A DNA stretch of 54,894 nucleotides from a virus (lineage: Duplodnaviria > Caudoviricetes), in IMG/VR virus record IMGVR_UViG_3300031951_000204, positions 1-54,894 of that record; one strand, 5' to 3'. The notes under the pieces are model-generated. The model saw nothing but the letters and a program-made list of their open reading frames with translations, searched no databases and had not been told where the DNA came from. Shown piece after piece: positions 6,088 through 38,000 of the stretch; positions within the stretch are counted from its first letter, which is position 1; every line of letters begins with the position of its first letter. The position numbers were made by a program, and so were the translations under genes.

Positions 6088-6444
6088 TTACTGGTTGGCG
6101 GCTTTTGGGGTGACTACCTTCGGCTTTTCACCGAACGGCAGCTTGAGTTGCTTCGGGTTGTCGCGGACAAGCTGGCCCTCGTGGACGAAGAACATGCTGG
6201 GCGCGATGTCGGGCACGGGAACGCTGCATTTCACGGTTCCGGAGACTTCCACTTGGCCGGAGTCATGGCCGCGCGGTTTGATTTCCAGCGTCAGGGTAAG
6301 CGTGCCTTTTTTGGCAGTCTCGCCTACGGCGGCGACAAGTTCCGCAAGTTGCTCGCTTGCCTGTTCGGCAAGGTCGCCATGGGAGACTTCTGACAGGGTG
6401 CGGGCAAACATATTGCTCGGCAGTTGGTCGGTTTCTTCACTCAT
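6088..6444 (-). CDS. YfdP-like conserved phage protein
   Basis: LAELVAAVGETAKKGTLTLTLEIKP...FFVHEGQLVRDNPKQ; usually precedes DUF2303. Confidence 0.7.
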   Translation of the reverse strand: MSEETDQLPSNMFARTLSEVSHGDLAEQASEQLAELVAAVGETAKKGTLTLTLEIKPRGHDSGQVEVSGTVKCSVPVPDIAPSMFFVHEGQLVRDNPKQLKLPFGEKPKVVTPKAANQ

Positions 6445-7402
6445 TGGTTTCGGTTGGTTGGGGTTCGGGTTGATTCTTTTCGGCGGCGTGCTCGGTCACG
6501 GCTTTGCGGAAGGCGTCTGCTTTGTTCAGGATGTTCTTGCGCTTGGCTTCCTTGAGGTCTGAGAGCTTTTGCCCTTCCAAGAGCCAGCCGATTGACAGGA
6601 GGTATGCTGTCGCGTCGTCCTCGATGCCCTTGAACACGCGGGCGAGGTCGTCCGTGCTGGCGTGGACCTTGGCGACCGCGGCGCGGGCGGCGAAGTCGTC
6701 CCATGACAGTTCCATTTCGGATGGAAGGTCGAAGCGGGACTTGGCGAGGAATCCGGGGCGCTCTTCCGTGAACATCACGCGCTTGCCCTCTCCCATGGCG
6801 CGGGCTTTCTTCGCGCCCTTTTCCTTGCGGAATGATTGATCGAACTTGGCGAAGAACATACAATCCACCGCCTCATGCCACGCCGCGGCGGCTTGCTGGT
6901 GCATCTTGAGCAAGTAGCGGTCATACCGCTCGCCCTCGATAACATCCTCCACCGTCTTGACGATGGCATGGCCGAGCGTGACCACGTTCATCTTGTTACG
7001 CAGGCGCTTGAGCTTCTTGAAATACTCAACCCATTGTTCGGTCGCGCGGACGTATCCCTTGCCGAAACCTCCGTCGATTTCCTCAATCGAATTGCAACGG
7101 GCCTCCTTGCAGAGAAACGCCCAAAGCAGGGGTTCCAATCCGTTCACGGTGTCGATCACCGCAGTTTCAAAATCGTGCGTCTCGTTTTGCAACGTGTCGA
7201 TGGCCGCGATTGCCTGTTGCCAGTTCTCAAGGATTGGGAGGCGGGCAACGTCCATCGTGCCGGTGCCGTCGTCAGTGCCGATGAAGATGGGCTTCGGTGC
7301 GGCGGCGGCGAATGTGGACTTGCCCACGCCGCCGGGGCCGTAAAGTCCGATGAAGTGAGGTCGGGCGATTGGCCCGCGGGTAATTTGTGATAACATGCTC
7401 AT
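6437..7402 (-). CDS. AAA_24 phage ATPase (Sak4-like recombination protein)
   Basis: LYGPGGVGKSTFAA Walker A, VIDT Walker B, AKSRF; start placed at ATG 7402. Confidence 0.85.
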   Translation of the reverse strand: MSMLSQITRGPIARPHFIGLYGPGGVGKSTFAAAAPKPIFIGTDDGTGTMDVARLPILENWQQAIAAIDTLQNETHDFETAVIDTVNGLEPLLWAFLCKEARCNSIEEIDGGFGKGYVRATEQWVEYFKKLKRLRNKMNVVTLGHAIVKTVEDVIEGERYDRYLLKMHQQAAAAWHEAVDCMFFAKFDQSFRKEKGAKKARAMGEGKRVMFTEERPGFLAKSRFDLPSEMELSWDDFAARAAVAKVHASTDDLARVFKGIEDDATAYLLSIGWLLEGQKLSDLKEAKRKNILNKADAFRKAVTEHAAEKNQPEPQPTETNE

Positions 7403-7406
7403 GTCT

Positions 7407-7703
7407 TTATTTGGTTGGGAAAATGCGGGCGAGGCAGGCAAGCCCCTCGGTGGTGATCTGGACGATGATGATGCGGCGATCCGTTTGATGCTTTTCGCGG
7501 CGCACGAGATTCATCTTTTCAAGCTGGTCAATCAGGCCGGTTGCGGCAGCGGTCGAAAACCCCACCTTGTCGGCAATGGTCGTCATTTTCACGCCGTTGT
7601 CAGAGTGACCGATAAGCGTCAAAGCGTGAACCACAGTGACCGCATTGATGTTCTCCTCGCGTGCGCGGCGACACGCCTGCATAAACTGTTCGGTGAAGTT
7701 CAT
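7407..7703 (-). CDS. MarR-family winged-helix regulator
   Basis: MTTIADKVGFSTAAATGLIDQLEKMNLVRR...DRRIIIVQITTEG; ATGA-coupled start at 7703. Confidence 0.85.
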   Translation of the reverse strand: MNFTEQFMQACRRAREENINAVTVVHALTLIGHSDNGVKMTTIADKVGFSTAAATGLIDQLEKMNLVRREKHQTDRRIIIVQITTEGLACLARIFPTK

Positions 7704-10199: not shown

Positions 10200-10383
10200 C
10201 CCCCTCACCCCTGAAATCCCCACTTAACATGAAGAAATCGAAATCCCATCAAGACACTGAAATCCATCACGTTGACCCACACAACGGAACGTGGTGATCC
10301 CCCGCTATGACGGTTCGATCCCGTCCTCGTGCATTTACTCCTGTATGGGTTTTCCAGCTATGTTCCCCTTGTGATCCCCTCAC
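10186..10383 (+). repeat. integrase arm-type direct repeats flanking the attP core
   Basis: TGTTCCCCTCGTGACCCCCTCAC (10186-10208) vs TGTTCCCCTTGTGATCCCCTCAC (10361-10383), 21/23 identical; partial copy GTGATCCCCC at 10294. Confidence 0.75.
10304..10333 (+). other. attP: attP core, a copy of a host tRNA 3' end (probably tRNA-Leu)
   Basis: T-arm GACGG-TTCGATC-CCGTC followed by acceptor 3' strand CTCGTGC and discriminator A; no 5' half present. Confidence 0.8.
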
Positions 10384-10718
10384 GAGCAAATGCGTTTTCT
10401 CAGCATCACTAAAAACCATGTCCATCCGTGGCTTTTCGATGGCTTCCCTCCGGGCTTTTCGATGGTGATCCGGTCCCGCCTGTCACCGATGCGGACAGTC
10501 CAGCGACGGACGCGCCCGGTTCGGAAGTCGTGCCATTGCAAACAGCCCAAAGCGTCCCCGGTTCGGCGTGGCAGGTTTTCAATCTCAATCTCGGCAAGCG
10601 CGCGGTGGTCAATGTCCAACATGCGCCGTTCTGCTTGCGCCTTTTGCGATGCAATCCCCATTTTCCGCGCCGTTTCGGACGAAAATCGACGCTTACGTTG
10701 CCAGCGGTTCCTTGTCAT
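10380..10718 (-). CDS. basic hypothetical protein
   Basis: Last ORF of the leftward operon before attP. Confidence 0.6.
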   Translation of the reverse strand: MTRNRWQRKRRFSSETARKMGIASQKAQAERRMLDIDHRALAEIEIENLPRRTGDALGCLQWHDFRTGRVRRWTVRIGDRRDRITIEKPGGKPSKSHGWTWFLVMLRKRICS

Positions 10719-10723
10719 TGGTG

Positions 10724-11239
10724 CTATAATAACTTGTTCGCTTTACTGAAAATCACCAGCATCGAGGGGAACGGCGCGGCTTGGATGTCCTTGAACCGTT
10801 TCGTGTAGTCCGCTGGTGAGACGTGGCCTTCGTTGAAGCGCAGGCGGCCCTTGAAGAATCGGATTTCATCGGCCTTTAGCGCGTGTTCGTGGAACCATCT
10901 TGTGTCTGTCCTTGCTGGTAGCAGGAAGACGGCGACATCCGCCTCGGGACCTTTGGCCAGCCAGACGCCAATCGTCCGGCCATACGGCGGGTTGCAATAG
11001 ACTCTCTGACCATCCCATCGGATTGCCGTCCCGTCCCACACTTGCCCAGGTTTGCACGGGTCGAGCGTGAATCCGAACTCTGCATCGAGAGCGGCGTAGA
11101 GATCCGGCGGCGTTCCCCATTCGACGTGAGCGGCCTTGAAGCAGGCGTGATCCCTCGAAGAAAGCGAACAAGGCATCGCACCCAATGACTGCCCGGCGGC
11201 AGTTTCAGGTGGATTCGGAGCGTCAGGGCGGGCAGTCAT
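10724..11239 (-). CDS. phage Dam-family DNA N6-adenine methyltransferase (cassette 1)
   Basis: EWGTP, FTLDPC, YCNPPY, LLPARTDTRWFH, FKGRLRF, APFPS. Confidence 0.9.
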   Translation of the reverse strand: MTARPDAPNPPETAAGQSLGAMPCSLSSRDHACFKAAHVEWGTPPDLYAALDAEFGFTLDPCKPGQVWDGTAIRWDGQRVYCNPPYGRTIGVWLAKGPEADVAVFLLPARTDTRWFHEHALKADEIRFFKGRLRFNEGHVSPADYTKRFKDIQAAPFPSMLVIFSKANKLL

Positions 11240-11260
11240 GGGTGGATTTTGTCGTTCGAT
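11163..11260 (+). repeat. attC: attC site 1
   Basis: AGCGAAC...ATC-g-CACCCA-a-TGACTGCCCG // CGGGCAGTCATGGGTGGAT...GTTCGAT. Confidence 0.85.
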
Positions 11261-11571
11261 GGACTGAGTTCCGGGGTGATGTCGGCACGGCACCCAAGGC
11301 AGATCCACATGCCCACGCCGTTTAGTTCGTGGCCCATGTTGTGCGGGCATTCTTCCTCCATCGGTTCCATGACGTAGGCTGCCTTTCCGTCATCGCGGAG
11401 GGTGATCAGCAGGTATGCGATTCCTCGATCCTTCATCACCTTGGCGATGGGCTTGATGAAGGCGGCTTCCCATGCTTTTTTGTTGTTCACATCTTTGCTC
11501 ATATTGTTGCGGAGTTGGTTGGTAATTCGGCCATCGAACAAGGTCGGTGCTGGCAACCGCGATAACGTCAT
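11236..11571 (-). CDS. hypothetical protein with CxH..CxxC motif (cassette 2)
   Basis: ATGA-coupled at both ends inside attC sites; alternative start at 11502. Confidence 0.65.
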   Translation of the reverse strand: MTLSRLPAPTLFDGRITNQLRNNMSKDVNNKKAWEAAFIKPIAKVMKDRGIAYLLITLRDDGKAAYVMEPMEEECPHNMGHELNGVGMWICLGCRADITPELSPSNDKIHP

Positions 11572-11622
11572 TCGTGCTCTTCGGGCTTCCCTGGCGCGGT
11601 TGCCAGACCTCGTTCGTTGTAT
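11533..11622 (+). repeat. attC: attC site 2
   Basis: ATCGAAC...GGT-g-CTGGCAACCGCG // CGCGGTTGCCAGACC...GTTGTAT. Confidence 0.8.
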
Positions 11623-11674
11623 GCACTGCGTCCGCTCGTTTCATCAGCGGATTGCGTCAGCGATTCATTGGCTT

Positions 11675-11857
11675 TCAGAGTCTCATTCTGCGGAGTTTTT
11701 CCGCGAGGAATGCGCCCCGCGATTGGTCGCCGCGCAGTGTATCCAGCTTTTCCCACAGTTCGGGCGGTAGCGTGATGCTCGACGTGATGACCGCGTTTTC
11801 CTTTGGCTTTCGCCCGGAGCCTTCGCGTTTGCCTCCGCGTTTCACTTTCGGTTCCAT
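11675..11857 (-). CDS. CopG/RHH-like regulator with RGGKREGSGRKP hook (cassette 3)
   Basis: SITLPPELWEKLDTL...SRGAFL pattern. Confidence 0.7.
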   Translation of the reverse strand: MEPKVKRGGKREGSGRKPKENAVITSSITLPPELWEKLDTLRGDQSRGAFLAEKLRRMRL

Positions 11858-12069
11858 TGCTCCCACCCTTCCTTTGCGGATTCAGCCGATGGACCGTAGA
11901 AGATTGGAGTGCTTCCGGGGTGGTTGCGCTCGATCCATCTTTCGAGGTCATACGCGGCCAGTTCCCACGAGTCGTGATCGCTGACGCAATCCGTATTCCG
12001 GCCCTTGAAGTGGTAGCGCGGACCGTAGTTGGTCCACATGGCTTTGATTCTGATTTCATTGTTTTTCAT
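11842..12069 (-). CDS. hypothetical protein (cassette 3)
   Basis: Directly preceded by a sigma70-like promoter. Confidence 0.6.
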   Translation of the reverse strand: MKNNEIRIKAMWTNYGPRYHFKGRNTDCVSDHDSWELAAYDLERWIERNHPGSTPIFYGPSAESAKEGWEQWNRK

Positions 12070-12078
12070 GGCGGAGCT

Positions 12079-12107
12079 ACGCTACCGCTTGCGTTTGATT
12101 TCGTCAA
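12079..12107 (-). promoter_or_regulatory. internal promoter in cassette 3
   Basis: TTGACG-17 nt-TAGCGT, 9 nt before ATG 12069. Confidence 0.55.
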
Positions 12108-12115
12108 CAGGTTTT

Positions 12116-12715
12116 TCATTCTTCCGCGAAGTCCATTTCGCCTTGCTGAGATACCATCCGCTCCGCGAGACAGATTGTGTCGTTGTGGTCGCCGCCGTGG
12201 CAGACGAGCATGGTTTCCAGCGTTTCCCATCCCGGCCCCATCCCTACGGAGTTCCATCCGAAGGACAGCACCACCGTTCCCGGTGTCGCCAGTTGCCGCA
12301 TGAGGATACGGCATTCCTTTTTCATGCGGGCGGTTTGGGTGTCCTTCATGGTGGCAGTCAGCCCGAGTTCCGAATACACCTCCGACACTTGGCGCGGGCT
12401 GTATGGAGGGTCGAAGATTATCAGGTCGGCTTTCACTCCATCGGCTACCATCTTCCGCATGAAGTCGCGGGCTTCCATGTGGTGTTCCGCTTCCGTGTTC
12501 GGGTTCATGTCGTTGGTGTGAGTCGCCCACCGCTTATTCCGCGCGAAGGGGTCGATAGACACTTTCGAGTGGCGAAGGTATCGCTTCACCATGTCGCCCA
12601 TTGGCGGCACTGAGAAGGTATCAGCGGACGGCATAGCCCACACACGGCGGAAGTATGATTCAGGAAGAGAAGAGATGGCGGAAGATGATGGCATACAACA
12701 AGGGAGTGATGGCAA
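12116..12715 (-). CDS. adenine-specific DNA methyltransferase (cassette 3)
   Basis: WAMPSADTF, IDPFA, FDPPYSPRQ, SFGWNSVGMG, HGGDHNDTI. Confidence 0.85.
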   Translation of the reverse strand: MPSLPCCMPSSSAISSLPESYFRRVWAMPSADTFSVPPMGDMVKRYLRHSKVSIDPFARNKRWATHTNDMNPNTEAEHHMEARDFMRKMVADGVKADLIIFDPPYSPRQVSEVYSELGLTATMKDTQTARMKKECRILMRQLATPGTVVLSFGWNSVGMGPGWETLETMLVCHGGDHNDTICLAERMVSQQGEMDFAEE

Positions 12716-12794
12716 CGGGAACTAGCCGTTCAAGTCGGTGGCGGATTCGGAGTCCTGCGCGGCTAGTCCCCGCGCCATACCCCCAGCGTTCGGC
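12693..12794 (+). repeat. attC: attC site 3
   Basis: ATACAAC...GT-g-ATGGCA-a-CGGGAACTAGCCG // CGGCTAGTCCCCGCGCCATAC...GTTCGGC. Confidence 0.85.
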
Positions 12795-13057
12795 GAATTG
12801 CCGTAGAGTTCGCGAACACATTCGGTCAGCCGTGTCAGCATCATTTGCATTTTGATGGTTTCGATTCGCTCCATAGATTCGGCGGTGAGGATGTCCTCGC
12901 CGTATTCCTCGCGGACCTCGACTGAGATTTCTCGCGTCTTGATTCCTTGTCCCGGTTTGATTTCGGGGCAGATGATTGTGAATGGCACGTATTTCGCCGA
13001 ACCAGGCGCTGCAGGCAACAGCCGCCCCGCTTCTACGTTCGATGTTTCTTGGTTCAT
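12722..13057 (-). CDS. hypothetical protein (cassette 4)
   Basis: Starts inside attC4 and ends inside attC3. Confidence 0.65.
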   Translation of the reverse strand: MNQETSNVEAGRLLPAAPGSAKYVPFTIICPEIKPGQGIKTREISVEVREEYGEDILTAESMERIETIKMQMMLTRLTECVRELYGNSPNAGGMARGLAAQDSESATDLNG

Positions 13058-13120
13058 TGGTTGTCTCCTTTGCGCTCAGGCGTTGCCGTCGGCGGCTGTG
13101 CCTGAGCTTGGTCGTTCCGG
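12996..13120 (+). repeat. attC: attC site 4
   Basis: GCCGAAC...GCT-g-CAGGCA-a-CAGCCGCC // GGCGGCTGTGCCTGAGC...GTTCCGG. Confidence 0.9.
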
Positions 13121-13123
13121 CAA

Positions 13124-13345
13124 CTAATCCCGCCATGGGAAGTCGTAGTGGCCAGTCTCGGCAATGAGGATGAAGCGCATCGCCAGTTCCGTTTCGCGGG
13201 AGATTTCCCCCGTCCCGGACTCGCGGCGACTGACAGTTTCGCGGGTGACGCCAAGGTAGTCCGCGAGTCGTTGCTGATTCCAGCCGACAGCCTTGCGGAT
13301 TTCCATGATGTCTCTTTGGTCGATTCGTGGTGGTGTTTTAGCCAT
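13124..13345 (-). CDS. XRE/HTH_3 transcriptional regulator (cassette 5); frame is open up to ATG 13486
   Basis: IRKAVGWNQQRLADYLGVTRETVSRRESG. Confidence 0.85.
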   Translation of the reverse strand: MAKTPPRIDQRDIMEIRKAVGWNQQRLADYLGVTRETVSRRESGTGEISRETELAMRFILIAETGHYDFPWRD

Positions 13346-13351
13346 GCGCGG

Positions 13352-13405
13352 AATGTGCGCTTTCCGCACACGGAATGCAAGCGCAAAGTGTGCGGATTTC
13401 TCACA
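13352..13405 (-). promoter_or_regulatory. promoter with two palindromic operators in cassette 5
   Basis: TTGCAT-17-CACATT; 17-bp TGTG-N9-CACA boxes at 13354-13370 and 13389-13405. Confidence 0.6.
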
Positions 13406-13415
13406 ATCAACCGCG

Positions 13416-13503
13416 CCGGAACAAGTCGCTGGATGGAACGCCGAGGAGCGTCCTTCTTGAAGCGGAGATTTAGGGTCGGCGTCCATGAGCTTATGCGTTG
13501 TGC
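13416..13503 (+). repeat. attC: attC site 5
   Basis: CCGGAAC...GCT-g-GATGGA-a-CGCCGA // TCGGCGTCCATGAGC...GTTGTGC. Confidence 0.85.
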
Positions 13504-13898
13504 GAAAGAATCAGCATCGCGTGAGTCGGTTCCCCGACCAGTCCAGCTCGGCTCGGGTGAGGGTCATGCATCAGCCCATCGTCGTTCCACAGGACGGCAT
13601 GAGCCTTTTCCCTTGGCGACGTTCCGCGAGCGATTACAGCGCCGCCGATCCACGCGGGCATGTCGCGCCACTCGATCATCATCATTCGCAAGCCACGGGC
13701 GTTCAGAAAGTCCGAGACGTTGTGATAGAATTTCCCCGAGTTCGGATCTTCCCGGTCGGTAAAGTCCGGAACATCGTCTTGGGGCAGTTTGAGCAGCCAT
13801 GAGAGGCACGCTGAGAAACAGTCAGAGTCCGTCCGTTGCGTCGGCAAAGACGCACAACAAGGGAGTGGATTCGACCCGGTGGAGCTTTCCAATTTCAT
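13491..13898 (-). CDS. papain/C39-like cysteine-fold protein (cassette 6)
   Basis: Q..DSDCFSAC ... HAVL ... HDPHP, a Cys-His-Asp arrangement. Confidence 0.6.
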   Translation of the reverse strand: MKLESSTGSNPLPCCASLPTQRTDSDCFSACLSWLLKLPQDDVPDFTDREDPNSGKFYHNVSDFLNARGLRMMMIEWRDMPAWIGGAVIARGTSPREKAHAVLWNDDGLMHDPHPSRAGLVGEPTHAMLILSHNA

Positions 13899-13946
13899 TT
13901 CAGTTACGGTTCAGTTTCTCCGGGCGCATCACTCCCAGCGTTAGCC
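13852..13946 (+). repeat. attC: attC site 6
   Basis: GCACAAC...GGGAGT-g-GATTCG-a-CCCGG // CCGGGCGCATCACTCCC...GTTAGCC. Confidence 0.85.
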
Positions 13947-14171
13947 AAAGTAAACATCTCCATGTTCATCGACTTTAGGTTTTCTCAAGTCCACCGCGAC
14001 AATGACTCCGTTCCACAGAATACCTTTTCCGGCAATCCATTCGGCGTCATCGCCCTCGGCGGGTTTCTGGTCGCGTGGCCATTCAAACGCCATAGCGCAT
14101 TCTCCATCGTCAAGAAGAACGTCCCAGCAGTAGGGCTTCCAGTCGAATACAGCACTGATTTTTCCTTTCAT
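13941..14171 (-). CDS. hypothetical protein (cassette 7)
   Basis: Stop codon TAA lies within the core box. Confidence 0.65.
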   Translation of the reverse strand: MKGKISAVFDWKPYCWDVLLDDGECAMAFEWPRDQKPAEGDDAEWIAGKGILWNGVIVAVDLRKPKVDEHGDVYFG

Positions 14172-14180
14172 AATTCAAGA

Positions 14181-14267
14181 GGCTAACAAGTCGTGCGAGG
14201 CAACGCCGATAGCGTCGGTGGTGAGTTCGGGCTTCATTCGCGACGTGCCTCCATTTGGACGTTCAAA
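14181..14267 (+). repeat. attC: attC site 7
   Basis: GGCTAAC...GTG-c-GAGGCA-a-CG // CGTGCCTCCAT...GTTCAAA. Confidence 0.75.
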
Positions 14268-14539
14268 AAATTCTCAGGATTGATCCTGCCGCGCTCCGCG
14301 TCAGAAAGCTCCGGCGATTTCCATCCATGCAGGCGCGCGTATTCTCGCAATGACAGGTCAAGCCGTTCGCGCTTTTGCCGAAGTATCTCACCCCGCTTCA
14401 TCCACTCACGCATGATTTCAAGGCATTGGCCTGACCCGTGGCATCGGGCGCACGGGATGTCACGGAAAGCGGTATTGGTTGCGGCGGGGGCGCTTATTCC
14501 CGTGCCGTTGCAATCCCAGCATGTTGTTGTTGCTGTCAT
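14234..14539 (-). CDS. DnaJ-type zinc finger + XRE HTH protein
   Basis: CWDCNGTG..CARCHGSG, then GEILRQKRERLDLSLREYA...LSDAERG. Confidence 0.75.
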   Translation of the reverse strand: MTATTTCWDCNGTGISAPAATNTAFRDIPCARCHGSGQCLEIMREWMKRGEILRQKRERLDLSLREYARLHGWKSPELSDAERGRINPENFLNVQMEARRE

Positions 14540-14835
14540 GGGTTGAAGGTTCCGATGGATTGGTATTCGTGTTGCTCTTGCTCGATGTCGTCCAGTGGGC
14601 GAAACCTCCGCGGGTCAAAGCCGCACTCTCCCCACTGTTTGCGGTGTGGAGGCGGCGGGTTGCGGACCTCGCGCAGCAGGATCGCGCACGTTTCGGCTCC
14701 GGCCCATTCTTGCGCTGGGATCACGTCGCGCACGGTGTAAACCTTTCCCTCACGCGGAAGGTTCTTCATGTAGTTGAGAACGGCATCAGGAAAAGCGCCA
14801 TTCACGCACACGACTTTTTGCCCTACGTCAAACAT
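14536..14835 (-). CDS. SH3/KOW-like hypothetical protein
   Basis: MFDVGQKVVCV...YTVRDV...FDPRRFRP. Confidence 0.65.
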   Translation of the reverse strand: MFDVGQKVVCVNGAFPDAVLNYMKNLPREGKVYTVRDVIPAQEWAGAETCAILLREVRNPPPPHRKQWGECGFDPRRFRPLDDIEQEQHEYQSIGTFNP

Positions 14836-25440: not shown

Positions 25441-27195
25441 ATGGAAGGACTCGACACGATCTTGCGGGAGGCTACGCGCTGGGATGTTGCGGCGTGGTTT
25501 GAGGGGTTTGGGAAGATACGTCGGAAGGGTGGGGAGTTGGTGAGTCCGCGGGCGAACGTGTATCAGCATCGAATCAGCGAGGTGTTGCGTGAGGCGCATG
25601 AGCGGGGGAGGCCAGCGAGGCTGGTGTGTTTGAAACCGCGGCAGAAGGGCAGCTCGACATTCAGTGTTGCGGCGCTGTATCGGCGGATGATGGCGAAGCC
25701 GGGTGCTGGGTTGATTGCGGGTGGCGCGCATTTCCAAGGTGCGAACCTGTTCAAGATTCTCAAGACCTACACGGAGAATGACGGGTTGGATGGTGATGCG
25801 TGCAAGGTGATGGACACGTCGGCGCGGTTTCGGAATGGATCGAGCATTGAGCGGATCACGTTGGCGAACAGCAATGCGGGCCGGTCGGGGACGTTTCAGG
25901 CGATGGTGTTGACGGAGGTGGCGTATTTGTCGGAGGAAGGGGTTGCGAATGCGGACGAGGTGTTAAACGGGTTGGTGAAGTGTGTTCCGTATGAGCCGGA
26001 CACGTTCATTATTCAGGAGAGCACGGCGAAGGGTGCGAGCGGGAGCTTCTATGATCTATGGCGTGGAGGGATTGAGTTTGACGAGTTCATGGCCGGGAAG
26101 AACGGCTATGTGAAGGTGTTTGCGGCGTGGTATGAGTTTGAGGATTCGCGGTTGTTGCCGGATGGTGAGGGGATAGGCGGATGGGATGATTTGACGGATC
26201 AGGAGCGGAGGTTGGCGGAGAAGTGGAATTTGGACTTGGAGCAGGTTGCGTGGATGCGGTGGGCGATACGGGAGGAGTGCAAGGGGGACTTTGACAAGTT
26301 CTGTCAGGACTACCCGTTTGATCCGGAGACGGCGTTCCTAAAGTCGGGTCGTGGTCGGTTCAGCATTGAGGGGTTGGAGTATCAGGAGAAGCGGTCGCGT
26401 GAGTGCAAGCGTGAGCATGGGGCGTTGGAATACAACGAGCGTGCGGACTCGGTGCAATGGGTTCCGATGAATGAGGGAGAGGCGCGGAGTGTTCGGTGGG
26501 AGACGCCGCGTGTCGGTTGCCGGTATTTGGTTGCGGTTGACCCTATGACGGGAGCATCGCAGACGGGTGGTGATGATCCGGACTCGCATGGTGTGTTTGT
26601 GTTGCGGCAGGGTTATCTGGACCGTGGCGAGTGGGTTGAGCCTGCGGTTGTGATGCGCAACATGCTGGTTGCGGATGGTGTTCGGTTCGGGTGCTGGTGG
26701 GACATTGACGTGTTGGAGGAAGAGGTGTGGAGGATGGCGAGGTATTGGCAGGCCATCATTGTTCCGGAGATGAACATGGATCGAGGGTTGGTGGAGTTGT
26801 TGAAGTTGAGGGGGGACGTGGACATTTATCAGCGTGAGATTTTCAACCGGCGGGAAATGACGCGGACGAAGGCGTTGGGATGGGTGACGGACATCCGGAC
26901 GCGTCCGATGGTGATTGAGGGGTTGGCGCGTGCTGTTAGAGAGGCGGGGCGAGGTGGGTCGGGTGAGGGGATTGAGATACGCTGTCCGTGGGCGCTGGCG
27001 CAGATGCGGAATTTTGTTGTGAAGCCGAACGGGAAGGCTGAGGCGGGGCCGGGATGGCATGATGATGATGTGCTGGCGTTGGCGATTGGTGTTGCGACGT
27101 TGGAGATGGCGGTTCCGTGGCAGGAGCGTGAGCGGATGTATGGTGGGCGGAAGTTTTTGGTGGGTGGACGCAAGGCTGCGGGGCAATGGGATTGA
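25441..27195 (+). CDS. terL: terminase large subunit
   Basis: LKPRQKGSST, LTEVAY, IQESTAKG, AVDP, HDDDVLALAI. Confidence 0.92.
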   Translation: MEGLDTILREATRWDVAAWFEGFGKIRRKGGELVSPRANVYQHRISEVLREAHERGRPARLVCLKPRQKGSSTFSVAALYRRMMAKPGAGLIAGGAHFQGANLFKILKTYTENDGLDGDACKVMDTSARFRNGSSIERITLANSNAGRSGTFQAMVLTEVAYLSEEGVANADEVLNGLVKCVPYEPDTFIIQESTAKGASGSFYDLWRGGIEFDEFMAGKNGYVKVFAAWYEFEDSRLLPDGEGIGGWDDLTDQERRLAEKWNLDLEQVAWMRWAIREECKGDFDKFCQDYPFDPETAFLKSGRGRFSIEGLEYQEKRSRECKREHGALEYNERADSVQWVPMNEGEARSVRWETPRVGCRYLVAVDPMTGASQTGGDDPDSHGVFVLRQGYLDRGEWVEPAVVMRNMLVADGVRFGCWWDIDVLEEEVWRMARYWQAIIVPEMNMDRGLVELLKLRGDVDIYQREIFNRREMTRTKALGWVTDIRTRPMVIEGLARAVREAGRGGSGEGIEIRCPWALAQMRNFVVKPNGKAEAGPGWHDDDVLALAIGVATLEMAVPWQERERMYGGRKFLVGGRKAAGQWD

Positions 27196-29028: not shown

Positions 29029-32000
29029 ATGGATGACAGCATGTTTCGCCAAAAGGGCGCGGGAGTCCCGCGTGGAAATGAATCGGTCGCGGAGGATGCC
29101 GTTCCGAGTGAACTCAGCGGGGGTGAGGTTCGTGTTCCGATATGGAAGTCGTTTGTTGGAAACAAGGATTTCCAAGAGCGGCAGGCTGGCGCGATAGCGG
29201 CGGAAAAGAGCCTGATGGCTTCCGCCGGGCGCGGCGGCGTGCGGTGGGGTGGTGACAACGGGCGGTTGTTTCGGAAGGCTGGCAGTTCGATTGAGGAATT
29301 TGACGCCGAGCAGTTGGCGGAAGACCCGGAAGCCGGGCCGTTTGCGCGCAAGAGCCTGTTTGACCGTGAGCGCCGGAGTGCGGCGGCGGAATATGATGGG
29401 TATGATTTGAAGCTCCAAGACCCGGCTTTCAAGGCGCGCGGTCTGACGGAAAAAGACCGTCAAGAGCGGCAGTTTGAGTTTGAGGCGTTGCCGGATACGG
29501 ACCCGCGCAAGGCGCAGGCCAAGGCGGCGATTGACGCGGACGACCAGTATCGCGCGGAGAAGGCGGAGATTGAGCAACGGAAGTATAACGCGAAAGTTCG
29601 CGCCACGCAGCTTGGCAACATTGACCCGGATACATGGTGGGCGAATCGCGCCACCATCGGGCAGGCACGCAAGCCCGCGCCGGTCGAGCAGGCGCAAGCG
29701 GCTCGTGGTGAGGCGAGGGCGGCGGATGATTCCGCGATGGGCCGGGAGAAAGAGCTTGATGCGGAGTTGATGAGCGGAGTGAGCGCCGCGCGGCTTGCGC
29801 AGATCAAAGCGGAGAAGGCGGAAATCGCACAAGCGCGCTCGCTGGCCGGTGAGCAGCAGGTTGAGGCGGACATGGCGGTTGATGGCGTCCGGCAGGAAGC
29901 GCAGGCCAAGGTTGACCAGTCTGTTGCGGAGCGTGGTTTTTGGGCTGACACCATTGCGGCGCTCAAGCGCGGCTATGCGGGTGCGGCGCAATCGGCAAAC
30001 ATCCTTCAGGGAGCAACTGACGCGGAGAACGCGCAAGATATTGCGGACTACGAGAAAATGAAGCAGGCCAACCCGGCTTCCACGGAGTTTCAGGAATTTC
30101 TCAATGCCAAGGGCTTTGCGGAGTCCGCCGCGGCATTCATCAAAAACCCCATCAGCATTGTTTCTGAGGTCATCGCGGAGAGCGCGGCGCAAATGGTTCC
30201 ATCCATCGCGCTTGGGTTTGCTGGCGGGTCGGCTGGCGGTGCGTTGGCGTCCGCTCCCACGGCTGGAACCGCGGCCCCGGCGACGGTCCCGATTGGCGCG
30301 GTGGTTGGCAGCGCCATTGGCGCGGGCACCGGCTCATATTTGGCGGAGTATGGCAACGCCATGCTTCAATCCATGCAGGAGGCAGGCATGGACGCGGCTG
30401 ACCCGAAGTCGATCCAAGCATTTTTCGGTGATGAGCAAAAACTTGCCGCCGCCAAGGAGTTTGCGGTGAAGCGCGGCATTCCGATTGCGATTTTTGACGC
30501 GGTTTCGATGGGCCTTGCCGGTAAGTTTATGAAGCCGGTCCAAGTTGCTGCCAAGGGCGGCGCGAAAGTGACGGCTGGGCAGGTTCTCAAGGCCAGCGGC
30601 AAGGAATTGGCCGCGCAGGCTGCGGCGGGTGCTGGCGGTGAGGCCGCGGCGCAGTTGGCGAGCACGGGCGAGATTTCAGAGGGCAAGGCCATCTTCTTGG
30701 AAGGCATTGCGGAAGTCGGATTTGCGCCGTTGGAAGTGGCGAGCAACTTGCGGGAGTTCGGCGGCGCTGCACCGGGCAGCAAGGAAGCGGATTTGATGGA
30801 GCAAACGACAACCGCGCTGACCGCGATTGACCCGGAAGCTGCCCCACCGACACCGCAGGAGATTGGGAATGCCGCTTTCATCACCGGACAGGGTGCCGGG
30901 GTTGAAGGACTGGCGGAAAGCGTGGTGATCGAGCGGGAGCTTGCCGGGATTGACGCGGAGGATACGGCGGCTGTTGCGGCAGCGGATCAAGCGGTTTTGG
31001 ATGCCAAGGCCACGGGTGACGCGGCGACGATCAAAGCGGCGGAGACGGCGCGTGAGTCGGTGATTGGAGGCCGCGCGCATCTTGTTCGCGCCGTGCTCAA
31101 GATAGCCTCCGGGCGGGACATTTCCACGCTGACGGACAACGAGCTTCGATCCATTGGCTACAAGGCGGACAAGGAAAAGCCGGGCGAGTATGTGGAGTTG
31201 GATGCGGATGAAGCCAAGGCGGCGGGCATCACAAAGCCGATGGTGCGCCGTGGCGCGGATGAGTCGGTTGTGATTACTGACGAGGCGCTGAAACGGGTCG
31301 AGGGCATTTTGCCGCGTGCTCGTGCCCGTGTGAAAATGGGCGAGACTGAGGCGCTGGACAAGGCGCAGCAACGCGCCAACACACCGGAATGGGAGGTGGA
31401 CACTTCCGCCGGGCCGGTGCGCGTGAAAGCCACGTCCCCGGAGGATGCGGAGCGCATTGCGGCGGAGACTTCTCCGCTTGGGCAGACGGTTCGCCCCGGC
31501 AGCGCCAAACAGGTTTCTCCGTCGCCCGGAAGTGATTCGGGCAATGCTCCGGGGGGGGCTTCGCCTGTGAACCCGGCGGCGGGGAATCAATCATCCAATG
31601 AAACAGGCCAGCCACAAACGCCGCCGGGAGCGGCCAATCAGCAAACGGGAAGCGCGGGAAATCCAGCGGGAGCTTCGGGAGGAACTGCGAGTAATGCAGG
31701 AGGCGCGCAAGGTGCCGCCGGGCAGGGAAATGCGGTTCCGGGGGCAGGAAAATGGTCAATCGTAGATTCTGACGGAAACTACAAATCGACGTATGACACG
31801 CAAAAGGATGCCGAAGCCGCCGCTGAGTATTTGAACGGCGCGGACAAATCGGGGAAAACTTATTCTGTTCGCCCTGCCACCGCGGAGGAATCCGGCGGAG
31901 CTTCATCAACAGGAGGAAAAGCCGCACCGGGCACCAAAGCTTTAGCCGCGGCTCGCAAGCGCATTGAGCAGATTAAGAGCAAGAACAAACGTCTCGCGGA

Positions 32001-35000
32001 TGCCATTATTGAGACACAAGACCCATCAATGTGGGCGATGATGTCCGAGGACGGGAAAAGCATTTACCTGAACGTCGAACGCATCATCAAGCGCGCCTTG
32101 GAGATTGGAATGAGCGAGGCGCAGGCCGCGCAATACTTCGCCCGCGTGCTCGATGAGGAAATCCGGCACATGGCGCACAATGATTCGGCGCGGAATCAGT
32201 ATGCCAAAATCGCCAAGGAAGCCGGTATTCACTTCGATGAAAAAGCCTTTGAAAACTGGCGCGAGCAGCATTACGGCGAAATCTGGCAAAACGATTTTGT
32301 TGCCCCCGGCAAGGACAAGATCATCCGTGACCTTTACTCGCGGGACACGACAAAGGGGAAAACCCACAACTTTGATTCCCTTCCAGCATGGAAGAAGGCG
32401 TTTGAGGGAATCCGCGCGTTGAGTCAGGGAGATAAAGTCACCGAAGGCAGCAAACTATGGACTAACATCAGAGACACGCTCCGGCAGGCGATTGAGGCCG
32501 CGCTTGCGGCACTCAAAGAGTTCATCGACATCGCCTCACCCACTCTCAAGACAGAAATTCAGAATCTCGAAAATGCACTCAAGCAACTCAATAAACCACG
32601 CGGAGGAACTTCAAAAGCTGGTGGCAAAAAGCCCGCTTCCGGCCAAGCGGGTGCTGGAACTGGCGGGGCGGCCCCACAAGGCGGCGATAGCAGCCCTGAC
32701 AGCAATGGCGGGACTCAGCCGCCACCAAGCGACGGCGCTGGTGCACCATTATCAGTCGGCGCGCGGGTGAGCTTTGTCTCGTCAAGCCCGGTGCTTGGCG
32801 ATATGGCCGGTCAGCGGATTGAGGGGACCATTGCCATCTTGCAGAACGGCATGGCGCGCGTGCGGCCTGATTTCGACCCGTCGATTTCGGTCGCGGTGCC
32901 GGTAGATGAGTTGACGGTGGAGCAGGCGGCAAAACCGCAGGCTAAACCTGCTTCCAACGAGGTTGGCCGCAACAAAAACGGCGATCAGATTTTCACCGAT
33001 GCGAACGGCGTGCGGTATCTTGAGGAAAACGGCTTCCGGATCAACCAGCCGGTTGACATGCGCCCGACGCGCGACGGTGTTGAATCCGTCCCGGTTTCGC
33101 CGCAGGAAATGTTCGACCGCGGCAATCTCCGGTTCCTGACCGAGACAGAGGTTGAGCAGATGCGCGCGGCCAAGGCGGCTGGCGGCAAGGATACCGAGTG
33201 GGAAGTTGCCAACATGGAACTTCTGTCGGAGGACCGCGCACGGATCAATGCGGCGCTGGTTGGGGATGAATCAGTGGTGAACGCGATTCGCAACAGCGAC
33301 CCGCAGAACGCGCGCATTCAGATCACAAGCCGGGTTCGCGCAATCCTCGCAAAATGGCTCAACGCCCGTGAGATTGATCCGAAGTCCTACACCTATTTCA
33401 GCCGCATGGCTGACAACCCGGTGTGGATTGATTCGGTGTTCAAGTCGGTCGGGAAAGAGATTTCCGCGGGCACTCCGCAACAAACACCAACCCCGCCAAC
33501 CAATGAAAAAGAAGGCCAAGGGCAAGGGCAAGCCGAAGGGCAAATGCTGACACCCCCGCCGTCCGGGGATAAATCCCCGGCGGCGCTCACCCCGGAAGAA
33601 GAACAGGCGAAGAAAGACCTGTTTGATGCTTTTGACGGTCTGGTAGATGGATTGGAAGCCGCCCCTCTGCCTGAACCGGAGTTCTACCGCGAGCGCCCGC
33701 CGACCGACCGCTTGCCGCAGATGCAGAAAGCGGCGCAATCGCTCATTTCCGCCGGGGTGGACACTCCCGGCAAGCTGGCCGAGTTCCTTGAGAAAGTCGC
33801 GCCGAACAAGCTCCGGCAGTTTTCGGAGTTCCTTTGGAGGCAGGTCAATTCCTTCCTCATGGGCGACACGGCGGCGGTGGATTGGAATGAAATCTACAAC
33901 GCATCAACGAATCAGGATGCGACAATCAAAGTAGGCGATTGGGTCCGATTCAAGGATCGTCCGGATGAAGGTCCGTGGACGGTTTGGAGCAAGGACGGCG
34001 ACCGTGTGAAGCTGGACAACAGCACGCGCAACCTTTCGTTCAACATCGACAACTTTGAGAAAGTCGATCCGCCGCAGGGGCAGGAGGAAGATGCCGATTT
34101 GAGAGATTCGATTCTTGGCCCTCCCATGGACGCGCCCGCCGAAGTGGTGCTTGATCGTCTCAAAAAACGCCTTCTCAAGCATGCCGAAGGCGGAAACATG
34201 GACCCGCACCAAATTGCCGGAACATGGTTTGAGATATTCTGGAATTTCAACGGTGATGGATACGCCACAATCCAAGGCCGAGGTCACAAGGTTTCCGCGA
34301 AAATATCCGATATTTTAAAGGGCAAAATTGGGGTTCAAGATTCAACGAATGAAGAATCCGCGCCGGAACCCGCCGCCGCCTATCGCCTTGCCTCCCAGCT
34401 TGCCGAGCGGATCAAACGCAAGGAAAAGACCAGCATTCAGGAACTCACCCGCATGGCGAGTGAGGTTTATGGAGGCAGGACCGGCGAAGGCTTCGACATC
34501 AAGACCGCTTATGACTCGGTGGAAATGGCAATCAACATCCTGATTGGAGAATCAGGCATGGAGGTCAACGTGACGCCGGAGCAGGCACGCCAGAACCTCG
34601 AAACCATCCGTGGCTGGCTAGAATACATCCCGACGCAGACGCGCCGCACGGGCGAAATGGATGCGATGCAACAATTTTCCACGCCACCCCATTTTTCCTA
34701 CATCGCTTCATGGGTGGCGGCGGTTGGCAACAAGGACGTTGGATTTGAGCCGTCCGCCGGGCTTGGCGGGCTGGCCGCGTGGATGGCCCGCGCCGGGGCT
34801 GACGTTCGCCTCAACGAACTGAGTCCGCGCCGCCGTGAAATGCTCGACCAGATGCACATTGGCCCGCCCGCCACCGGGCATGATGCCGGAGTGCTTCACT
34901 CCCTGCTTTTGCCAGCGATCAACAACGGCAGTATGCCGCAGCCGACGATTGTGGTGATGAATCCGCCGTTTTCCAACAACGCGGCGGGCCGGAAAGACTT

Positions 35001-38000
35001 GCTGACCGGCGCGAAGCACATTGACGAAGCTCTCAAGCTCCTGCCTCCCGGCGGGCGCTTGGTTGCCATCGTGGGCGAGGGCATGGCGCTGGAAGCTCCG
35101 AAATACAAGCCGTGGTGGGATCGCATCCGCCGCGATTACAACGTCCGCGCCAACATCCATGTCGATGGCCGCGAATACGCCAAGTATGGCACGACCTTTT
35201 CCAACCGGATTCTCGTCATTGACAAGGTGCCCCCGACCGGCGAAAGTATCGTCGGAGGCGAGGTCACACGAATCGAGGATTTGATTCCACTTCTCGACCC
35301 GGTAAGAACAACCCGCCCGACTCCAAATGAAAACGCTGCAATACCCGGAAATCCATCGCCACCCAATCAACAAGGCGGCATCGCTCCGACTCCGCAAGGA
35401 GGGAATGGACCGCGCGGCACCCCAAGAACTCCCGGTTCTCGCACTGGCTCGGGAAGTGCTGGTCAAGGAGGATCAGGAGGACTCGGAAGCGGCAATAGCA
35501 CTAACTCTGGTGGACAGGTCAATGGAGGAAGCAACGCAACTGATAGCGGAAGCGATAACACCGGAACAAATCCTGACGGACAACCTTCAGGACGTGGCGG
35601 ACAGGATTCTAGCGGAACTGCTGCCAAGCTAGACACCGAGGTTGAGCGCGACGAGGCATCGGCTGAGCGCAATGTGGATGAAAACGAGGTTTTCACCGAT
35701 TACACGCCGACGAAGTTCCGGCTGAAAGGATCACAGCCGCACCCGACCACGCTGGTTGAGAGTTCGGCCATGGCAACGACCGAGTTGCCAGCATCCACGG
35801 TCACGCTCAATCTTCCAAAGGAAGTCGTGACATCCGGCGAGCTTTCCGACGCGCAGCTTGAGGCCATTGCCTATGCGGTGCAGGCGCATGAGTCCGTGTT
35901 TGAAAACGGAGAGCGGCAGGGCTTTTTCATCGGTGATGGAACCGGCGTCGGCAAAGGCCGTGAAATTGCCGGGACCATCCTTCACAACTGGCGCGAAGGA
36001 CGGCGCAAGGCTGTTTGGATCACAGAGAAAAAGGATTTGGTGAAAGATGCACGGCGCGACTTTGACGGCATCGGAGGCAAGGATGTTTCTGTGTATGACA
36101 TGGCAAAAAACGTCCCAGCGCCACAAGGCGATGCGGTTGCGTTTTTGACGTATGACGGGTTGAAAGGAAATTTTGACGGCTTGACGCCAGATGGCGGAAT
36201 CCGGAAATCTGACGCCAAAAAACCCGCTCGCATCCAAAACCTTCTCAACTGGCTTGGCGCGGATTTTGATGGGTTGATCGCTTTGGACGAAGTTCATAAC
36301 GCGGGGAACGCGCTGGCGATCAGAGGCAGTCGTGGAACCAAGCAACCGTCACAAAAGGCCATTGCCGTAGTTGAGTTGCAAAAGGTGTTCCCGAAAGCTC
36401 GTTTCCTTTATGTTTCAGCCACCGGAGCGACCGAACCGAACAATCTGGCGTTTGCCTCGCGTCTTGGCATGTGGGGGCCGGGCAAGGCGTTCCGTGATGC
36501 CGTCAACTTCTACAATCAGATCAAATCCGCAGGCATTTCCGCCATGGAGATTGTCGCCCGCGACTTGAAAGCGATGGGTCTTTACGTTGCCCGCACGCTT
36601 TCCTTCAAAGGGCAGGATGGCGGCGAGTCGGTCACATTCACACGGCTTGAGCACAGCCTGACGCCAGATCAGGAAACCATTTACGGGAAAGCAGCGGAAG
36701 CATGGCAAACGATTTTCGCCAACATCGACCGCGCGCTTGCTGTGACAGGAGCAGCAAATAGCTCAAGGGCAAGAAACGCCGCCGCGTCCGCGTTTTGGGG
36801 ATCGCAGCAACGGTTTTTCAACGGCTTGCTTACCGCAATGCAGATGCCTTCCGCGATTGCGGACATGAAGCAGAAGCTGGACGAAGGCGGGTCAATCGTA
36901 ATCCAGTTGATAAATACCAACGAGGAAGCGTTGAACCGTGCAATCGCCCGCGCGCTTGCTGAAAATCCAACCAACCCGGATTACGAGAATGTGGACCTTT
37001 CCTCACGTCAGGACATTCTTGAGTTCATCCATAGCTCCTACCCTGTGAACCAATACGTTGAAGTTCCTAACGGAGTTGATTCGCAGGGGAATCCAAAAAC
37101 TCAATGGGTTCTTCTCACAGATGAAGAGGGCAACGCAATTCCCAACCCGCAGGCTGTTGCCATGCGCGATGCCTTGCTTGATGAAATGGCAAGGCTCCCA
37201 TTGCCCGATCCTCCGCTTGAGCAAATCATCAGGACGTTCGGCGCGGAAGCGGTTGCTGAAATCACCGGTAGGGACAGAAGGCTTATTGAAAAAACGGACG
37301 ACCGAGGAAGCACCCGGAGAGTGGTTGAAAGACGCAACGATTCAAAACGCGAAAAAGAGAAAAACGATTTCCTCGACGGCAAGCGCCGTATCCTCATGTT
37401 TTCGGACAAAGGCGGAACCGGATTCTCCTATCACGCTGGGGCGAACTTCAAGAACCAGCAGAAACGCTATCAATACGTCGTGCAGGCTGGTTGGCGTGCG
37501 GACAAGGCAATTCAAGGGCTTGGCCGGACCCACCGCGCCGATCAGGTCAAGACTCCGGCATTCATCCTTGTTTCCACCAACGTCAGCGGGCACAAACGGT
37601 TCATTTCCACCATCGCGCGGCGCTTGCAACAGCTTGGCGCGCTGACCTCCGGCGAGCGCAAGACCACCGGGCAGGGCTTGTTTGATGACAGCGACAACAT
37701 CGAGGATGCTTATGGTGACAGCGCCGTGACGAGGTTTTTCTTTGACCTGTTCCGCGGCGAGATTCCGGGGCTTGGATTTGACGACATCACAAGGAAACTT
37801 GGATTCCAAAAAACAACAATTGACCCGATAACTGGAGAAGAAGTCACAATCAACAAGCTCTTGGATGATGCGGGATTGCTGAATACAAGCAAGATTCCGG
37901 AACTTAGCCAGTTCCTAAACCGCATCCTCGCGCTGCCGATCCAAGAACAAAACTCGGTGTTCGACGCCTTCATGGAGCGCCGCGAGGTCTTTATCCGGGC

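Follow-up and report, generated by a model that had tools for sequence, protein, structure and literature searches.

A putative integrase-less integron platform with seven attC cassettes in a temperate phage of Verrucomicrobiales

Integrons are bacterial gene-capture devices, which have recently been recognised also as stores of anti-phage defence cassettes. The locus described here raises the question of how an array of such cassettes can be carried, and perhaps exchanged, by a phage that harbours no integron integrase (IntI) of its own. It occupies positions 10716-14263 of the IMG/VR virus record IMGVR_UViG_3300031951_000204 (Duplodnaviria; Caudoviricetes), the whole of which (linear, 54,894 bases, CheckV estimate 93%) was analysed and is referred to as the window. 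The best explanation, to which a probability of roughly 0.8 is given, is that the window represents a temperate phage of Verrucomicrobiales bearing an integrase-less integron platform, i.e., an attI-like site and seven attC cassettes on which an IntI supplied in trans would act. An initial annotation, made from the letters of the sequence, had proposed that the accessory genes of this phage are exchanged as integron cassettes; the fold of the attC sites, the footprints at the cassette ends and the gain, loss and reordering of cassettes at G^TT (the caret marking the crossover) in related phages all speak for this proposal.

The seven attC sites and their kinship with host integrons

Exactly seven attC-type hairpins, all on the plus strand, are present in the window. 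Their positions had been given correctly in the initial annotation, whose limits take in a further 4 nt outside the AAC and GTT triplets. The array extends from 10736 to 14263, and the seven sites are held in approximately 3.1 kb (Table 1). A covariance model (R1) was built from an alignment (A3) of 18 sites, 16 from phages and two from hosts; when applied to the full window with filters off, it retrieved only these seven sites (52-69 bits), while the runner-up match reached 15 bits. The AAC and GTT triplets are found in 7/7 window sites and are invariant in all 18 aligned sites. Furthermore, the start box of each of the seven cassettes is, as had been noticed earlier, the reverse complement of its own end (R'') box, over 9, 9, 9, 10, 8, 8 and 7 nt, respectively. 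This amounts to 39 matched bases besides the fixed GTT/AAC, for which the chance expectation is about 4^-39 by our arithmetic; chance is therefore excluded. No hairpin accompanies the GTT box at the left end (10736), and the box past the final G^TT (TTCAAAAAA) is phage backbone without a partner. For the site-7 GTT box (GTTCAAAAAA), no partner box was found near the array, a search of the window for its 7-nt core giving a match only at 31830.

The 18 sites share a structure in which AAC/GTT is followed inward by an unpaired spacer and then by three stems, of 3 bp, 5 bp and greater length, separated by two bulges. Pairing is observed in 85.2% of the cells of the alignment as against 60.6% in shuffles (none of 500 shuffles reached 85.2%) and only 35-45% in controls with slid partners, and changes on both sides are seen in 17 of the 22 pairs. 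On the top strand, the first bulge (column 17) is an unpaired G in 16/18 sites and the second (column 23) an unpaired A in 15/18; within the window, the second unpaired A occurs in six of the seven sites and is missing from site 2, as initially described. Folding of single strands gives clear hairpins at sites 1, 2, 3 and 6, while the energies of sites 4, 5 and 7 are unremarkable relative to shuffles (bottom-strand z-scores for sites 1-7: -2.9, -4.4, -1.9, -1.5, -0.2, -2.6 and +0.9). The hairpins with extrahelical bases, on which the initial annotation depended, are thus borne out by covariation across the 18 sites, and it is covariation, not energy, that supports the fold.

According to Nivina et al. 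2016 (PMC5027507), the unpaired bases of an attC bottom strand lie on the arm opposite AAC, the first at position 16 (usually G) and the last, a conserved T, at 23/24, with a 6-bp stem separating the unpaired bases and a spacer of 5-6 nt. Counted from the outer end of the GTT box, the minus strand of the window sites has a spacer of 5-6 nt followed by a 3-bp stem, a bulged C at position 16, 5-6 bp between the bulges and a bulged T at 22/23. It conforms to the rule as set out in that article, apart from C replacing G at 16, and the minus strand is therefore the bottom strand. Many of the hairpin loops, otherwise unlike, share a short top-strand motif, ATTCGGAGTC or GTTCGGGCT (for example, window 11213-11222 and 12748-12757; also the related phage loci L015 and L018).

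The same model links these sites to chromosomal integrons. At the host locus L077, on which R1 was not trained, it found approximately 29 sites (45-61 bits) beside an IntI gene scoring 380.8 bits with TIGR02249, the family by which IntI was called throughout (cut-off 265 bits). In 15 further IntI loci, 25 of 27 R1 matches have the orientation of a canonical integron, in which IntI and the array diverge. The host attC sites begin AAC-AAG, as the phage sites do, and the first base left unpaired on their top strand is likewise G in the two G005 sites of A3 and, by eye, in one G003 site. Since IntI-linked arrays are found by R1, and the spacer start and the bulge are alike, the window sites belong to the attC family of the host group's IntI. 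It is hardly credible that the hairpins are instead ordinary intergenic palindromes (terminators or repetitive extragenic palindrome-like repeats) with boxes unrelated to site-specific recombination. Such palindromes would likewise be intergenic, unremarkable in folding energy (as 3/7 are) and without any Rfam match (0 in a scan of the whole window at gathering thresholds), but they are contradicted by the 39-base complementarity of the boxes, the exact G^TT breakpoints between relatives described below, two conserved bulges with covariation and the retrieval of IntI-linked arrays with the same model.

The array boundary and the exchange of cassettes

Alignment of the 376-aa tyrosine integrase encoded to the left of the array brought in 42 viral loci, and arrays were found at the same place as in the window in L002, L015, L016, L017/L018 and L026. 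L015 and L016 have near-identical backbones, on which common cassettes are reordered and private cassettes are added in each. In 7/7 L015/L016 junction comparisons, identity is lost or gained exactly at G^TT; the switch occurs to the right of the hairpin, which remains with its left-hand DNA. This switch point fixes the polarity: the top strand is the plus strand and the crossover lies in R', as is canonical. As a separate observation, one hairpin (L015 11173-11297; L016 12033-12156) is 98% identical in the two phages and differs in both neighbouring cassettes and in the R'' boxes, and the homogeneous attC sites of the host array likewise combine the same hairpin with unlike flanks. Unlike flanks around one hairpin would follow either from exchange at the AAC side too or from new cassettes being built on old hairpins.

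Comparison over 10300-14700 with Logan contigs of three other metagenome runs (X5, X8 and X10), which as contigs cannot reveal circles, extends these results to the cassettes of the window itself. Cassettes 2, 4 and 6 were found singly, followed by unlike sequence, with contig breaks at 11253/4, 11618, 12786-92, 13113-17, 13497 and 13942. Cassette 2 occurs alone, with both flanks unlike, in contigs of X5 and X8, and in X5 it is preceded by the attI-like flank ...cctaattaact; cassette 4 is alone in an X5 contig spanning 12786-13117 and cassette 6 in an X8 contig spanning 13497-13942. X10 shows the beginning of cassette 3 directly after a variant of attC5. The attC hairpins, unlike the cassette genes, are common to the window and the fetched arrays, that of attC3 being 94.7% identical to one in L086 and 88% identical to ones in L015, L026 and L022. 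The summed contig depth in X5 is 91 over attC3 (12652-12798) as against 4-6 in the adjacent bins, and the attC3 hairpin is present in many contexts in this sample.

The left end of the array is fixed by a conserved motif preceding G^TT, which reads ggtgctataataactt in the window, ggtcggtctaataacgt in L084-L087, gggtgggataactcctt in L083 and ggttcctataattaact in L015, and to which a different first cassette is joined in different phages. In L084-L087, one common backbone flank is followed by four unlike sequences after G^TT; such replacement of the first cassette on the same flank requires recombination at the array-start boundary. Twelve host attI junctions beside IntI read ...TAATAA.ACT G^TT, and an ungapped weight matrix derived from them was used for scoring. 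The window boundary scores 5.2, which places it in the top 0.18% of 3852 GTTs (background mean -8.65). The other phage boundaries score 8.9, 4.2, 3.9, 1.3, 0.3 (L090) and -1.1 (L084), the value of -8.1 for L017 being meaningless because its entry was one base out of register, and the host junctions range from -6.8 to 10 when each is left out in turn. The case for a host-type attI at 10736 is, on these scores, good but not conclusive. The initial annotation can be refined to the extent that the array start is, judging from sequence, a conserved attI-like site rather than a random GTT.

Beside this site lies the open reading frame ORF112, for which no Pfam family, no usable Atlas match and only structural neighbours with template-modelling (TM) scores below 0.5 were found. 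Sites of the attC type are located directly upstream of its homologue in all nine related viral loci with upstream sequence, the first G^TT being 18-366 nt from the mapped start of the homologue (18-78 nt in seven of the nine), and an empty insertion site, i.e., ORF112 without a cassette, was found in none of these nine. The notion of ORF112 as an IntI remnant was dropped, as it has no similarity to IntI loci.

These exchanges also bear on whether the array could be a frozen relic, built by an ancestral IntI and immobile today, with hairpins that serve only as intergenic RNA or terminator structures. The window without IntI, the nearest host genome with none over the cut-off, the absence of the window cassette genes from the fetched loci except for one 28-residue fragment, and the position of the hairpins in the sense strand of transcripts would all agree with a relic. 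It is nonetheless unlikely, given that independent metagenomes hold cassettes 2, 4 and 6 in other surroundings, that the footprint boxes are still perfect in 7/7 cassettes, and that IntI-less phages of the ORF112 type share an identical flank and carry unlike first cassettes, for which recombination at the boundary is required at a time later than the origin of that backbone.

The array is placed between the 376-aa integrase and the leftward early genes, and phage genes flank it on both sides. It adjoins the phage integrase, where prophage ends occur, and a section title in Qi et al. 2023 (PMC9892861) names chromosomal integron fragments in Vibrio phages; a piece of a host chromosomal integron, brought onto the contig by imprecise prophage excision or chimeric assembly and foreign to the phage itself, might therefore be suspected. 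Such an origin is very improbable, since Sak4 and nuclease genes lie to the left and terminase-like, portal and head genes to the right, the same layout recurs in a complete phage with terminal repeats (L002, in which the array is present and IntI absent) and in syntenic sister phages, and the cassette genes are of phage families and on the strand opposite to that of host cassettes. At the right end of the array, the last eight codons and the stop of the backbone gene ORF101 fall within attC7. By frame arithmetic, AAC is read as a codon in frame at 14263-14261 as well as at 10738-10736; if the array were absent, ORF101 would thus stop at TAG 10726-10724, which is now the stop of the Dam gene of cassette 1, 10 nt past the cassette boundary and within the attI-like site. 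When used as a single-protein locus query, ORF101 retrieved 0 related loci.

Two further observations concern the setting. In L005 (400-1001), L022 (37-526) and L023 (2130-3076), which are other phage contigs with relatives of the integrase, two or three attC matches lie approximately 4 kb upstream of the integrase, not downstream, so that the position of the platform relative to the integrase is not fixed. Between the terminase-like region and the portal gene, the window has one open frame of 4503 aa (29029-42540, plus strand), the first 300 residues of which are 53-55% identical in sister phages.

Integrases of the window, its sister phages and the hosts

The claim that the phage lacks an integron integrase stands: in the 54.9-kb record there is no TIGR02249 match and no other candidate, and tblastn of the IntI-like protein of sister phages against the window gave no match at 1e-8. 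The window thus has seven clustered attC sites and no nearby intI, which is the composition of a cluster of attC sites lacking integron integrases (CALIN; at least two sites), and not the intI beside attI of a complete integron. The 376-aa integrase is probably the lysogeny integrase. It has no NCBIfam family at E<=1, no match in a PDB sequence search and a BLASTP E-value of 0.30 against host IntI; having neither a TIGR02249 match nor IntI similarity, it was rejected as an integron integrase.

Among its homologues (316 at E<=0.001), Luteolibacter is the sole organism name in the best 120 of the 316. The relatives in genome contigs are from metagenome-assembled genomes (MAGs) of Verrucomicrobiota, the closest (69% identity) being in a Prosthecobacter debontii MAG; as a single-protein locus query, the integrase gave one weak relative. 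IntI is over the cut-off in two of the five Verrucomicrobia genomes holding relatives of the phage integrase. The initial annotation had suggested that candidate hosts be searched for intI, and this search was positive in 36/81 sampled genomes of the family of the closest genome.

An IntI could come from a related phage too. In L015, L016 and L026, a 321-aa IntI-like gene starts 49 nt to the left of the attI motif and is read in the direction away from the array, in the position occupied by ORF112 in the window. Its protein has TIGR02249 as the best family (194 bits, under the cut-off of 265; positions 14-314 of 315), as compared with 111 bits for XerD, and is 34-37.5% identical to host IntI proteins. 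Past these three arrays lie homologues of the terminase-like, portal and head genes of the window, and this synteny places the integron inside the phage genome. These sister phages have, accordingly, the make-up of a complete integron in a phage genome, with cassette genes pointing to the integrase gene. A partial IntI-like match was also seen in genome G009 (L117 6052-8373; 215 bits, model positions 4-218, in a frame of 384 aa), on the same strand as two downstream attC matches rather than in the usual divergent layout.

A self-contained system, in which the phage's own 376-aa recombinase, perhaps with ORF112, recombines the hairpins, has to be considered as well, for its gene is 540 bp from the array start, the array-bearing loci were fetched via relatives of this very integrase, and ORF112 stands beside the insertion site in 9/9 loci. 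This is, however, quite improbable: an attC match at E<=0.001 accompanies only 11 of the 42 viral and none of the 25 bacterial loci fetched with the integrase, the fetched 7-kb flanks of the ORF112-type phages do not contain this integrase, the protein is without IntI similarity, true IntI genes are accompanied by attC sites and an insertion site of the kind seen in the window, and the sister phages carry, in addition to this integrase, an IntI-like gene where the cassettes are inserted.

Table 1. Coordinates of the array, its cassettes and other features of the window (aa, amino acids; bits, score with covariance model R1; ORF, open reading frame)
Feature	Position	Strand	Details
attI-like site	10716-10738	+	Crossover between G 10736 and T 10737; fixed left end of array
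Cassette 1 (518 bp)	10737-11254		Dam-type DNA methyltransferase 10724-11176, minus (PF05869 at 1.6e-14; phrog_111 at 2.1e-31)
attC1	11167-11256	+	AAC 11167, GTT 11254-11256; 65.8 bits
Cassette 2 (362 bp)	11255-11616		89-aa ORF 11236-11505, minus, no family
attC2	11537-11618	+	AAC 11537, GTT 11616-11618; 52.0 bits
Cassette 3 (1172 bp)	11617-12788		ORFs 11675-11866 and 11842-12069 and methyltransferase 12116-12694, all minus; phrog_11619 DNA methyltransferase at 2.4e-34; 63-aa ORF, phrog_35980 at 1.8e-6
attC3	12697-12790	+	AAC 12697, GTT 12788-12790; 65.0 bits
Cassette 4 (326 bp)	12789-13114		111-aa ORF 12722-13057, minus
attC4	13000-13116	+	AAC 13000, GTT 13114-13116; 52.6 bits; outside training set
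Cassette 5 (383 bp)	13115-13497		Helix-turn-helix regulator 13124-13486, minus; HTH_3 at 7.9e-10; true start may be further in
attC5	13420-13499	+	AAC 13420, GTT 13497-13499; 68.8 bits
Cassette 6 (443 bp)	13498-13940		135-aa ORF 13491-13898, minus; phrog_5845 at 3.3e-22 (function unknown)
attC6	13856-13942	+	AAC 13856, GTT 13940-13942; 62.4 bits
Cassette 7 (321 bp)	13941-14261		76-aa ORF 13941-14171, minus, no family
attC7	14185-14263	+	AAC 14185, GTT 14261-14263; 59.6 bits
ORF112	10380-10718	minus	Conserved neighbour of attI-like site; occupies position of IntI-like gene of sister phages
Tyrosine integrase, 376 aa	9069-10199	+	phrog_1 at 6.5e-14; 540 bp from array
ORF101	14234-14539	minus	Right-flank backbone gene, zinc-ribbon/HTH-like; HTH_31 at 5.5e-5
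Sak4-type annealing protein	6437-7441	minus	Nuclease genes also encoded left of array
Terminase-like protein	25441-27195		
Portal	42562-44757		
Head protein	47656-49155		
IntI-like gene of sister phage L015	8450-9415 of L015	minus	Identical in L016 and L026

Cassette genes, their orientation and comparison with known systems

Family matches in cassettes 1 and 3 uphold the two methyltransferases read from the sequence initially, and that in cassette 5 the regulator; the "C39-like" protein is not upheld, as phrog_5845 is the only match of 13491-13898, and searches of Pfam (E<=0.01) and of PDB sequences gave nothing. The coding strand was judged by such matches, GC content by codon position having failed to discriminate it. 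All five window cassette ORFs with a family match (Dam, the second methyltransferase, the helix-turn-helix regulator, phrog_5845 and phrog_35980) are on the minus (bottom) strand, and so are all six in relatives (two methyltransferases in L015, a PAPS-reductase-like protein in L016, methyltransferases in L090 and L086, and a weak match in L092). Of 11 top-strand ORFs, namely four long plus-strand ones in the window and seven in relatives, none has a family match. The top strand carries the longer ORF in 22/26 cassettes of the host array L077, and one top-strand ORF there matches Mrr_cat. Read in this way, the phage cassettes are mirror images of bacterial ones, their order in the sense of the gene being attC and then ORF, whereas the bacterial layout (top-strand ORF, then attC) is not that of the window cassettes. 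Cassettes 1 and 4 have start codons and a ribosome-binding site within their own attC sites; the long loop of attC4 contains the ribosome-binding site and ATG of the 111-aa ORF, the final 23 codons of which are within the neighbouring attC3. The cassette genes point to the attI-like site, to ORF112 and, in sister phages, to IntI.

A related arrangement was observed in a bacterial chromosome (L116 7078-10937; genome G009, contig 1, approximately 2.179-2.183 Mb), where the interval from a fructosamine kinase gene to DUF1501/PSD1 genes holds a homologue of ORF112 together with an attI-like G^TT and three attC sites, with no other window gene nearby. Its long ORFs, of 111, 210 and 296 aa, have the top-strand orientation of bacterial cassettes, and none has a Pfam match.

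In the mechanism proposed, the bottom (minus) strand of the window would fold into an R stem, a spacer of 5-6 nt, a 3-bp stem, a bulge at 16, a stem of 5-6 bp, a bulged T at 22/23 and a variable loop. An IntI supplied in trans, from the host chromosome or a co-resident sister phage, would cleave the bottom-strand AAC between A and C; cassettes would be excised as circles via attC x attC and inserted at the attI-like site via attI x attC. Such recombination may still take place in the window phage. The cassette genes would be transcribed with the leftward early genes, toward attI and ORF112, which is the opposite of the bacterial layout. We infer the direction of transcription, the IntI that acts and a service of the methyltransferases against restriction. 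A wider picture, for which the chances appear even, would be that a group of temperate Verrucomicrobia phages keeps a standing integron platform, made up of a host-type attI and an array of mirror-image cassettes read from an early promoter. The phages would thereby have a rapidly reshuffled reserve of counter-defence genes of their own, chiefly DNA methyltransferases, which moves by integron chemistry and is expressed by phages only; some members would have kept the divergent IntI, and others, such as the window phage, would have replaced it by ORF112 and would rely on IntI of the host or of a sister phage.

Several results weigh against an integron platform served in trans. Beyond GTT, none of the eight GTT boxes fits GTTRRRY (R-box consensus RYYYAAC/GTTRRRY); the IntI-linked host boxes GTTCTCC, GTTCGGC and GTTAGCC are likewise off this consensus, and the deviation looks like a lineage trait. 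On the bottom strand, the first extrahelical base, usually G, is a C, a trait shared by the IntI-linked host sites inspected. No folding advantage of the bottom strand was found over the seven sites (lower energy in three, higher in three, one tie). The genes of the window cassettes were not found in the other fetched arrays, save for a 28-residue fragment of the cassette-2 ORF in L085, and no IntI over the cut-off was found in the Prosthecobacter debontii MAG, which is an incomplete genome. The orientation of the genes is opposite to that expected from IntI-driven capture out of a bacterial integron, and exchange with host arrays may accordingly be rare. Lastly, recombination at G^TT is seen by comparison of junctions and contigs and not directly.

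With this platform, integron machinery is met with in phages too: it is conserved within a phage lineage and carries many DNA methyltransferases, which would counter restriction. Were this reading confirmed, both sides of the phage-host conflict would vary their gene content by integron recombination, and the inverted orientation would be a simple structural rule separating the phage and host cassette pools functionally. Furthermore, sister phages with and without IntI offer a natural system for understanding how integrase-less arrays remain mobile.

Insertion by IntI outside att sites (bioRxiv 10.1101/2022.09.11.507474) would explain the entry of a first cassette into a phage genome at a plain GTT; the insertion point of the window is conserved, attI-like and reused rather than an arbitrary GTT. 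Phage-borne attC clusters with methyltransferases are already known from Qi et al. 2023 (PMC9892861), in which 10,705 phage genomes from NCBI were screened, integron parts were reported in 21 phages, 17 CALINs of at least two attC sites were termed sporadic, five methyltransferase cassettes were listed and five of the six phage attC sites tested were recombined by IntI1. As far as described in the main text of that study, its CALINs resemble the window array in being attC clusters without IntI, with methyltransferase cassettes and a bacterial IntI acting in trans; they differ in that the window array sits at a conserved attI-like site of a phage group, with shuffling among its members, bottom-strand genes and Verrucomicrobia hosts. 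A literature search, the scope of which did not extend to the supplementary tables of Qi et al. 2023, where a similar case is possible, gave no report of integron arrays in Verrucomicrobia phages or of inverted phage cassettes. New here are the conserved attI-like platform across a phage group with shuffling, the sister phages with and without an IntI-like gene, and the consistent inversion of genes.

The chromosomal integrons of Verrucomicrobiota (L077, L079, L080 and L099-L114) are of the same attC family by covariance model and have attI junctions similar to the array-start boundary of the window; they differ in having IntI beside attI and top-strand ORFs, where the window has ORF112 and bottom-strand genes. 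The closest counterparts in layout, the sister phages L015, L016 and L026, share with the window the syntenic backbone, attI motif, attC type, bottom-strand genes and methyltransferase cassettes, and differ in encoding the 321-aa IntI-like recombinase, of which the window has none.

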